From a virus (lineage: Duplodnaviria; Caudoviricetes): 64,000 nt of DNA. Below the pieces are notes generated by a model. The model ran no database searches and was not told where the DNA came from. It saw nothing but the letters and a program-made list of their open reading frames with translations. Location of the stretch: positions 192,001 to 256,000 of IMG/VR virus record IMGVR_UViG_3300033498_000048; one strand, given 5' to 3'. Shown in pieces: positions 29,098-30,924 of the stretch. Within the stretch, counting starts at the first letter, position 1. Each line of letters begins with the position of its first letter. A program made the position numbers and the translations under genes.

Positions 29098-30205
29098 AGA
29101 ATTGCTTAATGTTTCTAATAAGTATAATTTAGCCTCGGCTGCAAAGCACATTAAGCTTGATGTAATTAAAGCAACACAAGCATTTCCAGATAAAATAACG
29201 TTATCACAAAGAATACGAGCTATTGCTGACAATAATGCTTGTATTTGTCCATATTGTGGAAAGGTACACGGTAATCCATATCGAGATTATTGTAATCAAC
29301 AATGTTACACAAAACATACAACAGCTAATGCTATATCCAACAAAATCAATAAACTAATTCAAGCAGGTGAAATAAAATATGCTGGTTTAGTTGAAGGTGT
29401 CGATTATCTTGTTTGTCAAGTTTGTGGATGTAAGTGTCAAGATGTAGGTAAACATAGTAAAATCCATGGATTATCTGCTACAGAATATAAACTAAAATTT
29501 GGCATTAAGAAAACTAAAGCTGATATTATTTGTAAATATGGAGCAGATAATCCAGGTTATCAACATGGTGGGAAGTTTTCTAAATGGTCAAAGAATTACA
29601 TCCACGGTTATGACGAAGTTGCTCATAAAGAGTTTAAAGAAAAACAGTCTAAATGTAGGACAAACAACCCAACCAATCATTTTTCTAGGGCGCACTATTC
29701 TAGCGATGCTGAATATAGTAAAGCTCAATCCAGAGGATTAGATTATTTTATTAGAAAATATGGCGATGCTGGAATTGATAAATGGCATAATAAAAATATG
29801 AATATGCAGGTATCTCAACCAATTATGTCTTTTAAATCTTTGTGGACAAATAGAAGTGAGGTTTTAGGACATTTCTACATCCTTAAAATATCAACTGATA
29901 AAATAAAAATCGGAATAACAACAAGAAAGGTGGTGAAACGGTATTGTAATAGTGTTGATGTGATAGTTGATTTAGAATGTACAATATCTATAGCATTTAT
30001 GATTGAACAATTAACAAAACGACAATTTATAAACTTTTTAATTGATAAAAATGATGCTGTAACTGGATTTGGGTGGACAGAAACATTTAACATTAATTGT
30101 TTAGAACCGATGTTGAAATCAGTCGATACTTATGTGAATAATACTGATATGTTATCGACTGATTTCAAATCAACATTTAAGTTGAAATACCCTGACCGTT
30201 TTTAA
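29072..30205 (+). CDS. Putative free-standing homing endonuclease (zinc fingers plus C-terminal GIY-YIG/T5orf172-like nuclease)
   Basis: CPYCG..YCNQQC; CQVCG..HSKIHG; GLDYFIRKYG; C-terminal FYILK...KIGITTR....RY. Confidence 0.65.
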   Translation: MTELLAQCKELLNVSNKYNLASAAKHIKLDVIKATQAFPDKITLSQRIRAIADNNACICPYCGKVHGNPYRDYCNQQCYTKHTTANAISNKINKLIQAGEIKYAGLVEGVDYLVCQVCGCKCQDVGKHSKIHGLSATEYKLKFGIKKTKADIICKYGADNPGYQHGGKFSKWSKNYIHGYDEVAHKEFKEKQSKCRTNNPTNHFSRAHYSSDAEYSKAQSRGLDYFIRKYGDAGIDKWHNKNMNMQVSQPIMSFKSLWTNRSEVLGHFYILKISTDKIKIGITTRKVVKRYCNSVDVIVDLECTISIAFMIEQLTKRQFINFLIDKNDAVTGFGWTETFNINCLEPMLKSVDTYVNNTDMLSTDFKSTFKLKYPDRF

Positions 30206-30299
30206 TACTTAGATTGAACAAATCTACAATTGTAATTTCCTCAATGGTATTTGTAGATTTGTTCCTGATTGTTAGTTTTGTTTCTGGTGACACACATTT
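30177..30299 (-). CDS. gp17: Terminase piece 1, exon 2: Walker A Lys plus split intein N-fragment IntN1 (39 aa); absent from the ORF track
   Basis: AAA TGT GTG TCA CCA GAA ACA...ACT TAA = K|CVSPETKLTIRNKSTNTIEEITIVDLFNLSIKNGQGIST*. Confidence 0.9.
   Translation of the reverse strand, partial: KCVSPETKLTIRNKSTNTIEEITIVDLFNLSIKNGQGIST
30216..30264. terminator. 14-bp perfect hairpin inside the IntN1 coding sequence
   Basis: gaacaaatctacaa-N21-ttgtagatttgttc, starting 11 nt after the stop of the plus-strand endonuclease gene. Confidence 0.55.
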
Positions 30300-30609
30300 C
30301 AATATCTTCAGTGATATTCGCTAAATATCACCCGTTTATTAGACTGCTTTAGCTTTTCGCTAAATGTTGAGACTATATCTTAGTGTTTAATAAACACCCC
30401 TAATGTTTCGAGATTGCTTAATCCCTACGGCATATTGCCTAGTCGTTGAACTGCTTCCAGTGTGGTTACATTCCACTTAGGAAACTAGCTGCTGATTTAC
30501 CAATTCTTGATATTGTCACTGTGTTGTATTATTTCTAATACAATTGAGTAATCAAGACTCTAAGGTTGTTCCAGCAATTAAAAAGGTTTTACATGGGCAA
30601 GTTCATCCC
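30300..30609 (-). mobile_element. Group I intron, 310 nt, no internal ORF
   Basis: P AATTGCTGGAA 30579-30569; Q AATCAGCAG 30497-30489; R GTTCAACGACTA 30451-30440; S AAGATATAGTCT 30381-30370. P1 pairs exon AUGGGU with intron GCCCAU, giving a U.G wobble at the splice site. Terminal G at 30300. Confidence 0.93.
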
Positions 30610-30924
30610 ACCCATTTGTCTTGATAGTAAACATAAATTAAATCTATTTTCCTGGAAAGATTTAATCATTTTTTGTTGATATGGATATAATTTAAATTTA
30701 ACTAAACCTTCATCTAAGTTTACGATATAGACATAGTTTTCAATAAAGTAAATTATGTCAGTGGCACATTTGTAAATTTCCCTAATTTGGTCTTCAGTGT
30801 ATGATAATAGAGTTCCAGCCTTCATAAGTTTTGTATTTCCGTTGTAACAAAACTTATCTTTGTTTAGTGTTGGGGAATCTTCTACTGTTTTATGTGTGTT
30901 TATAGGAACTATTTGAGTTTCCAT
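30610..30924 (-). CDS. gp17: Terminase piece 1, exon 1 (N-terminus up to RQMG)
   Basis: KCATDIIYFIENYVYIVNLDEGLVKFKLYPYQ (Q motif)...LSRQMG. ATG 30924 has a GGAG RBS. Confidence 0.95.

Follow-up and report, generated by a model that had tools for sequence, protein, structure and literature searches.

A predicted group I intron one codon from a split-intein junction in the Walker A motif of a phage terminase

How can a phage assemble its DNA-packaging motor when the gene for its only terminase large subunit (TerL) breaks off inside the Walker A motif? The question is raised by a 64,000-nucleotide (nt) stretch of DNA (hereafter the window; positions 192,001 to 256,000 of IMG/VR record IMGVR_UViG_3300033498_000048, Caudoviricetes), on whose minus strand TerL is encoded in separate pieces; all coordinates without another source named are positions of the window. 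The viral genome of that record is 305,782 bp long, has terminal repeats and is estimated by CheckV to be 100% complete, and across it there is one match to the group I intron model RF00028, one Terminase_6N domain (the TerL ATPase) and one N-terminal TerL piece. A first-pass annotation made from the letters of the window had proposed that a group I intron interrupts the motif one codon from the junction of a split intein. We consider it probable that a group I ribozyme of IA-like type, free of any open reading frame (ORF) and predicted to be functional, splits the Gly|Lys pair of Walker A in the sole TerL. Because TerL is single in a complete genome, RNA splicing and protein splicing both appear to be required for a working terminase, and the sequence suggests that the packaging motor depends on one splicing step at the RNA level and two at the protein level.

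The interrupted Walker A motif and its intron

TerL exon 1 (30610..30924, minus strand) comprises 105 codons from the ATG at 30924, with an in-frame TTG further upstream at 30948 (gene call P0122), and the 119-amino-acid (aa) ORF 30948..30589 (minus strand) matches the terminase large subunit family PHROG 5989 (E 1.5e-25). Its C-terminal residues, ...LCLLSRQMG, are the first half of Walker A, and its last codons are CAA ATG GGT, ending at 30610. The Walker A motif of T4-type TerL proteins reads SRQxGK[TS], so the reading frame of piece 1 is broken between Gly and Lys. Translation of the unspliced RNA gives ...SRQMGGMNLPM*, a 111-aa product that, as had been claimed, holds neither the Walker A Lys nor the N-terminal half of the first intein (IntN1). 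Exon 2 opens with AAA TGT GTG TCA CCA GAA (30299 onward), which translates as K-CVSPETKLTIRN...GIST*; its AAA codon (30297..30299, minus strand) encodes the Walker A Lys, is the sole extein codon in exon 2 and gives the intein its -1 residue; the Cys1 codon TGT of the intein follows at 30296..30294. The intron thus follows the Gly codon and the intein starts 3 nt beyond it, after Lys, exactly where the first-pass annotation had placed them; the range 30177..30616 given there corresponds to the last bases of exon 1, the 310-nt intron and exon 2. In the spliced frame the sequence is open (...SRQMGKCVSPETKL...GIST* in translation) and the GGT|AAA junction restores GK, with a predicted ligated exon junction of ...CAAATGGGT|AAATGTGTG... 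(ATGGGT|AAATGT).

The sequence between the exons (30300..30609, minus strand, 310 nt) is, by covariance-model match and core elements, a bona fide group I intron. RF00028 scores 56.1 bits there, against a curated gathering cut-off of 50 bits, both in a 1.2-kb region around it (E 2.9e-13) and in the whole 305.8-kb genome (E 1.7e-14), and the alignment spans model positions 1-253. All strings and coordinates of the core elements named at first pass were reproduced by script. P1 has six base pairs, formed by the exon end AUGGGU (30615..30610) with the internal guide GCCCAU (30598..30593), and places a U30610.G30598 wobble at the 5′ splice site. The remaining core strings are AAUUGCUGGAA for P (30579..30569), AAUCAGCAGC for Q (30497..30488), GUUCAACGACUAG for R (30451..30439), which includes the P7 5′ strand GACUA (30444..30440), and AAGAUAUAGUCU for S (30381..30370), which includes the P7 3′ strand UAGUC (30375..30371). 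The intron ends on a G (30300), followed by AAA TGT. Its minimum free energy is -81.2 kcal/mol (z = -4.04), a stability reached by none of 100 dinucleotide shuffles, and the longest stop-free stretch inside it is 33 aa. The free fold displays P1, P4, P5, P5a/P5b with a GAAA loop, P6/P6a, P7, P7.1, P7.2, P8, P9 and a distal 8-bp P9 hairpin. P3 (CCUUU/AGGGG) is absent from the free fold because it crosses P7 as a pseudoknot, and was drawn by hand. A 32-nt insert in the covariance-model alignment between P7 and the 3′ strand of P3 folds as two hairpins, which we call P7.1/P7.2 on the basis of this fold and not of a subgroup-specific model; P7.1/P7.2 hairpins are an IA-type feature.

The intron recurs at this site in close relatives. 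Two of them came from a protein search with the truncated ORF: P0123, encoded on two ENA contigs and 84% identical, and P0124, an NCBI protein at 79%; both break after ...SRQMG into unrelated residues. The two ENA contigs (L071 and L072) hold the intron in place; in L071 it occupies 7433..7737, scores 52.4 bits with RF00028 and is followed by an exon 2 reading KCVSPETKISIRN...VLT*, so that the frame KCVSPETK... is kept. P0124 reads ...SRQMG and then LRYVCPCKTF*, in which CPCKTF* could be the guide and J1/2 translated in another frame, as back-inferred from the protein. Between the window and L071, identity is 76% in exon 1, 82% in the intron and 79% in exon 2, and either structural constraint or recent lateral spread would be in keeping with this greater conservation of the intron DNA relative to its flanks. 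The two sequences part directly 3′ of ATGGGT. Within the intron they differ by indels of 1, 4 and 14 nt, none a multiple of three, and a 1-nt indel falls 7 nt short of the 3′ junction, while exon 2 differs by substitutions and a net 3-nt change in length that leaves its frame intact; this pattern sets both boundaries where the first-pass annotation had drawn them. Changes on both sides of a helix that preserve pairing occur once each in P5b, P7.1, P7.2, P8 and the distal P9 hairpin of the hand-drawn structure, as compared between two sequences, and RNAalifold backs four of these five pairs (P5b, P7.2, P8 and distal P9) and not P7.1. P1 (six pairs), P3 (five pairs), P4, P6, P7 and P9 are invariant. 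Outside the source record, a 369-nt Logan contig from another study covers 30290..30659 with six differences and one gap. Four DNA runs examined for the locus yielded short contigs and no intron-less joint 30300/30609.

Several observations weigh against a functional intron that feeds a functional intein. An Rfam scan of the whole window at gathering thresholds with default filters gave no match; since RF00028 is above its cut-off in a smaller search space, we take this miss to be an effect of the speed filters. The covariance-model match ends at 30347, and the last 47 nt, comprising the distal hairpin and the terminal G, were placed by reading and by comparison with one relative. P10 is weak, with only 2 bp to AA of the 3′ exon. 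Covariation draws on only two independent full intron sequences. No RNA run was found to contain the intron stretch. On the protein side, block B of the C-terminal intein half (IntC1) has Ala at the usual Thr/Ser position, as do its relatives and VidaL. The missed match is also a caution for annotation, given that default Rfam filtering and gene callers overlooked the intron and a truncated 111-aa ORF was reported in its place; other sequences scanned with default Rfam gathering settings may likewise hide introns.

The split inteins and the alleles without the intron

IntN1 (30177..30296, minus strand), defined by the spliced translation and by contiguous inteins at the same site, has 39 codons (30296..30180) and ends on a TAA stop (30179..30177). 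Its predicted partner, the 115-aa IntC1 (15955..16299, minus strand), lies 14 kb away at the start of the TerL middle piece, has block B as ..CADTH.. and ends ..GIVSHN before the Thr+1 of TTTAAAYLL. The features of intein 1 are those of class 1: Cys1, the block B His and a terminal ..SHN|T with Thr+1. Complex prediction for IntN1 (40 aa) with IntC1 and 15 extein residues scored 0.72 against 0.00 for the best control, a level that 51 of 78 solved complexes attained, as did 2 of 108 mismatched pairs; likeness to solved split inteins may feed this score, so that it speaks for resemblance and is no proof of binding, and association of IntN1 with IntC1 as split-intein halves is a structure-model prediction only. 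The middle piece as a whole (16299..14950, minus strand, 449 aa) contains IntC1, the ATPase core, the N-terminal half of a second intein (IntN2) and a tail; from the extein onward (14950..15954) it carries the ATPase core that follows Walker A (Terminase_6N, PF03237, E 2.7e-23). IntN2 (CCSANTEV...) begins at codon 293 (15423, minus strand) after QEYD| and is followed by a tail of ~120 aa that runs to 14950 and has no Pfam match. In P0005 and P0021 a fused GIY-YIG domain (PF01541) occupies the position of this tail, which may therefore be a degenerate or novel endonuclease remnant. Piece 3 (13846..14934, minus strand) starts after a gap of 15 nt and comprises the 111-aa IntC2 (14934..14602), ending ..GILSHN|C, then NFLGSSGTLISG... 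with the Terminase_6C nuclease domain (PF17289, E 1.4e-16). IntC2 matches the CatC consensus strongly (E 7.8e-20) and has the insertion site of the AceL/GOS-TerL (Cat) allele, with Cys+1 after QE[FY]x; IntC1, with Thr+1 and the Walker A site, falls outside that allele and matches VidaL (E 3.3e-6) and the CatC consensus (6dsl_B, E 1.3e-5) only weakly. The intron-adjacent intein is therefore a different allele from the TerL inteins studied in the laboratory.

Alleles at this site differ in what they carry. The first-pass annotation had suggested a search for intron-less or intein-less forms, and intron-less ones were found. P0125 and P0127, both split N-pieces that end in GK|C..., have the intein and not the intron, and contiguous mini-inteins GK|C...HN|T occur at the same site in P0018, P0063, P0064, P0069 and P0079. 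At least 43 of the 119 best middle-piece homologues start with an IntC followed by an extein [TS]. Empty sites are found in 67 IMG/VR loci (L002-L068; 39-56% identity), where RQxGK[ST] is uninterrupted, and in the closer L098-L101, which read ...RQMGKTTTVAAYLLYEAIF on CAG ATG GGT AAA ACG ACA, keep the ATGGGT that the intron guide pairs with and have no RF00028 match in their records; the most distant IMG/VR loci, L069 and L070, have no GK motif. The best 60 TerL matches from a tblastn search of cultured phages are all uninterrupted (identity at most 58%). Word-based N-piece searching found only three relatives with the window ORF as query, and two intron-less split N-pieces with P0125. An allele with the intron and without the intein was not seen among the relatives found. 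The claim that two unrelated elements converged independently on one motif is favoured by the intein-only and empty alleles and by an intron seen only in the closest relatives. With a widespread Walker A intein and an intron observed only in the nearest clade, a later arrival of the intron is the simplest reading, and comparison of these alleles suggests that it probably arrived on an allele that was already split.

Scans for the intron-core pattern brought up further contigs that were set aside as of no use for covariation. The viral contigs L073 and L074 are unrelated multi-intron capsid-like genes; in L074 758-2810 and L073 62-1005, three RF00028 matches fall in a span of 1-2 kb, in what is apparently a single structural gene, beside a GIY-YIG-like ORF. 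The metagenome contigs L075 and L076 gave no RF00028 match. L076 130-400 (minus strand) is an ORF-containing intron that shares only the intron 3′ end, ..GAAGAUAUUG, and part of the 3′ core (P7′-P9) is common to the TerL intron, L076 and the ORF-containing gyrB intron of Staphylococcus phage PALS_2 (L105 1501-1619). One intron lineage seems, from these shared 3′ sequences, to occupy different genes.

Proposed route to the motor and competing readings

By analogy with the families to which the elements belong, a functional P-loop would be rebuilt as follows. Piece 1 would be transcribed from the minus strand, from ~30950 to 30177, and the guide GCCCAU would pair with the exon end AUGGGU to form P1 with its U.G at the splice site. 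An exogenous guanosine would attack after U30610, and the freed exon would then attack after the terminal G30300, joining GGT to AAA. Only this ligation would bring the Lys codon and the 39-aa IntN1 into frame behind the 105-aa N-extein. The 145-aa product would dock by IntN1 on the 115-aa IntC1 with which the middle piece begins, and class-1 trans-splicing (Cys1, terminal Asn, Thr+1) would make the Lys-Thr bond of the P-loop, SRQMGK-TTT, with a predicted trans-spliced peptide of SRQMGK-TTTAAAYLLYEAIFNSNK. The second atypical split intein, of AceL/GOS-TerL type, would append the nuclease domain. As the unspliced messenger lacks the Walker A Lys and IntN1 and there is a single TerL, RNA splicing is logically upstream of trans-splicing and packaging. 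The first-pass annotation had called it an obligatory gate, and dependence does follow from there being one TerL and one N-piece; nothing points to a regulatory role beyond that of any intron-containing gene. Gating holds in the trivial sense only, in that unspliced RNA leads to a 111-aa dead end, and any timing role would be a matter of logic.

Downstream of IntN1 lies a convergent 377-aa ORF (29072..30205, plus strand), which overlaps the end of IntN1 by its last nine codons. The ORF probably encodes a free-standing GIY-YIG-type (T5orf172/MUG113) nuclease with a Ros/MucR-type zinc finger, an assignment that is based on homologues and on a weak Atlas lead. Direct Pfam and PHROG scans of the ORF gave only a sub-threshold Ros/MucR zinc finger (E 5e-4), and on its own it reached no Pfam nuclease threshold. 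It has 331 homologues, and among the 40 that were aligned, 17 match PF10544 (T5orf172) and 11 match PF13455 (MUG113), which we take to be members of the Pfam GIY-YIG clan; Y269, K279, G281, R290 and E312 are invariant in the alignment. A contig from run X2 extends over most of the ORF. L071 retains only its last 63 codons (7829-8020, minus strand; P0175; 74% identical), a remnant that looks like a decaying free-standing endonuclease gene. On present sequence comparison, the ORF is an optional nuclease-like gene whose neighbours, the intron and the intein half, are both ORF-less. Within the IntN1 codons, 11 nt past the stop of this ORF, is a perfect 14-bp inverted repeat, GAACAAATCTACAA/TTGTAGATTTGTTC, with a 21-nt loop (30216-30229 / 30251-30264); the repeat is not kept in L071, where the ORF is truncated, and may be a 3′ hairpin imported with the nuclease gene.

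This neighbour gives rise to a rival of independent convergence that leaves the splicing mechanism untouched. Collaborative (trans) homing would be extended to an intein half, so that the intron, Lys codon, IntN1 and nuclease gene travel together as a composite mobile cassette, the nuclease cutting empty Walker A sites and repair copying its neighbours. The overlap of the nuclease ORF with exon 2, the T5orf172/MUG113 domains of its homologues and its variable state in close relatives (full length here and in the run X2 contig, a 63-aa stump in L071) are all as such a cassette would have them, and so is an intron that is more conserved (82%) than its flanking exons (76-79%). Collaborative homing of ORF-less introns is documented (PMC3984707), as are fractured genes with a free-standing endonuclease between the intein halves (PMC2677866); here the ORF, predicted to be a nuclease, follows IntN1 directly on the opposite strand and is itself followed by ~13 kb of other genes. 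The intein-only alleles P0125, P0127 and P0018 nevertheless mean that the intein spread without the TerL intron, downstream homology for repair is 14 kb distant, and the target of an ORF that is below every Pfam nuclease threshold is only hypothesised. Joint travel of this kind is somewhat unlikely. We give a lower probability, and regard as unlikely, a three-part version (intron, Lys codon with IntN1, and the overlapping nuclease gene) in which one nuclease aimed at the empty Walker A site mobilises both elements and the intron was acquired on an intein-occupied allele, possibly because it breaks up the target that a competing nuclease has there. If true, this cassette would be the first case of an intron and an intein with common homing machinery, and the first in which RNA splicing supplies the -1 residue for protein splicing.

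Three other explanations concern the intron itself. It might act as an adaptive switch, its GTP- or factor-dependent splicing timing or throttling assembly of the packaging ATPase. Dependence on splicing follows from the single-copy gene and a 'molecular on-switch' has been proposed for phage TerL, polymerase and ribonucleotide reductase (RNR) introns (PMC11878797), but no sequence feature separates a switch from a neutral selfish insertion and relatives with empty or intein-only sites evidently package DNA without the intron, which makes a regulatory origin quite improbable. It is more improbable again that the intron is a splicing-dead relic, that piece 1 is a pseudogene or that the assembly is chimeric. 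The want of an RNA run with the sequence and a covariance-model score just 6 bits over the cut-off would suit a relic; the genome is complete without another TerL, the core elements are all intact, compensatory changes distinguish the intron from that of L071, the exon 2 frame is conserved there, and junction-spanning DNA recurs in independent samples. RNA splicing would be unneeded if exon 2 were translated by itself, as MK-IntN1, from an in-frame TTG in the last three intron bases, and an ORF finder does report a 41-aa TTG ORF (30302..30177), with the TTG also present in L071. That TTG is accounted for by the conserved intron 3′ end ..AUUG, no ribosome-binding site lies upstream of it, and the trans-spliced TerL would lack 105 N-terminal residues along with the RQMG half of Walker A, all of which makes such a start hardly credible.

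Relation to known systems and neighbouring features

Group I introns in terL have precedents in Lactobacillus phage LL-H and in Twort-like staphylococcal phages. They are also known elsewhere, for example in the SIOphi TerL of Bastillevirinae (PMC11878797). The intron predicted here resembles phage terL introns in being of the self-splicing group I type, in occupying a conserved part of terL and in its core elements, and its 3′ core resembles that of the ORF-containing PALS_2 gyrB intron. Unlike them, it is ORF-less, belongs to a T4-type (Terminase_6) TerL of an uncultured 306-kb phage, and separates the Walker A Gly|Lys pair 3 nt from an intein junction, a placement of which we found no published account. 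Atypical split TerL inteins of the AceL-TerL/GOS-TerL/Cat family have an IntN of 25-37 aa and an IntC of 104-122 aa with block B (Dassa 2009, PMC2677866; review PMC11766414; PDB 6DSL). Both inteins of this locus share the very short IntN and the long block-B IntC, and IntC2 is a member of that family; intein 1 differs from it in its Walker A site, its Thr+1, its weak similarity to CatC/VidaL and the 14 kb between its halves. Inteins are known to cluster in the P-loops of ATPases, with terminases as frequent hosts, including of contiguous terminase inteins (Novikova 2016, PMC4760082). Insertion into the P-loop of an essential ATPase and the contiguous same-site relatives GK|C...HN|T fit that pattern, and what sets the present intein apart from those described is that it is atypically split and preceded by an RNA intron.

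Genes that hold both an intron and an intein include SPbeta bnrdE/bnrdF and Trichodesmium RNR. Several self-splicing elements at conserved sites of one essential gene are common to those genes and to the TerL considered here; in the genes checked the elements occupy separate sites, whereas here a single allele has a split intein whose junction is one codon from that of the intron. That introns and inteins both favour conserved sites underlies the hot-spot concept (Swithers 2009, PMC2814812), and crAss-like phages of the Zeta group are dense in both (PMC7886860). Collaborative homing is known for an ORF-less intron with an adjacent free-standing endonuclease, as in T4 mobE/I-TevIII (PMC2790892; review PMC3984707). 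The TerL locus likewise has an ORF-less intron near a probable free-standing GIY-YIG-type nuclease gene, with the difference that the predicted nuclease is on the opposite strand and an intein half lies between it and the intron. In full-text literature searches, we found no intron one codon from an intein junction in one allele, with closer precedents of the SPbeta RNR type being possible, and no intron described within a split-intein N-piece. The locus is accordingly a new arrangement of known element types and not a new kind of system; it is the stacking that is unusual.

The P-loop of an essential enzyme would, on our preferred reading, be rebuilt by RNA self-splicing and then by protein trans-splicing, with junctions one codon apart. 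The locus offers a sharp test bed for the conserved-site hot-spot view of selfish elements and a setting in which to see whether adjacent elements interfere or cooperate (compare neighbouring inteins, PMC10643990). For protein engineering, a new atypical split intein at the Walker A site (39-aa IntN, Thr+1) and an AceL/GOS-type intein in one protein make a candidate orthogonal pair.

Some features around the TerL pieces are recorded here as leads. CTAAATA, a late-promoter-like motif, lies ~26 nt 5′ of the exon 1 ATG, with ATAAATA in L071; it is a lead only. A sigma-70 promoter with a perfect 12/12 consensus (TTGACA, 17 nt, TATAAT) at 30957-30985 (plus strand) is directed away from TerL piece 1 and faces a plus-strand block that begins at 31021. 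Directly upstream of TerL piece 2 (16286-19375, minus strand) come a Tet/JBP dioxygenase gene (17963..19375), a gene for an amino-acid:DNA transferase (16825..17973) and one for a P-loop nucleotide kinase (16286..16837), the last of which overlaps at its end with the start of piece 2. Together these genes look like a thymidine hypermodification cluster situated between the intein halves.

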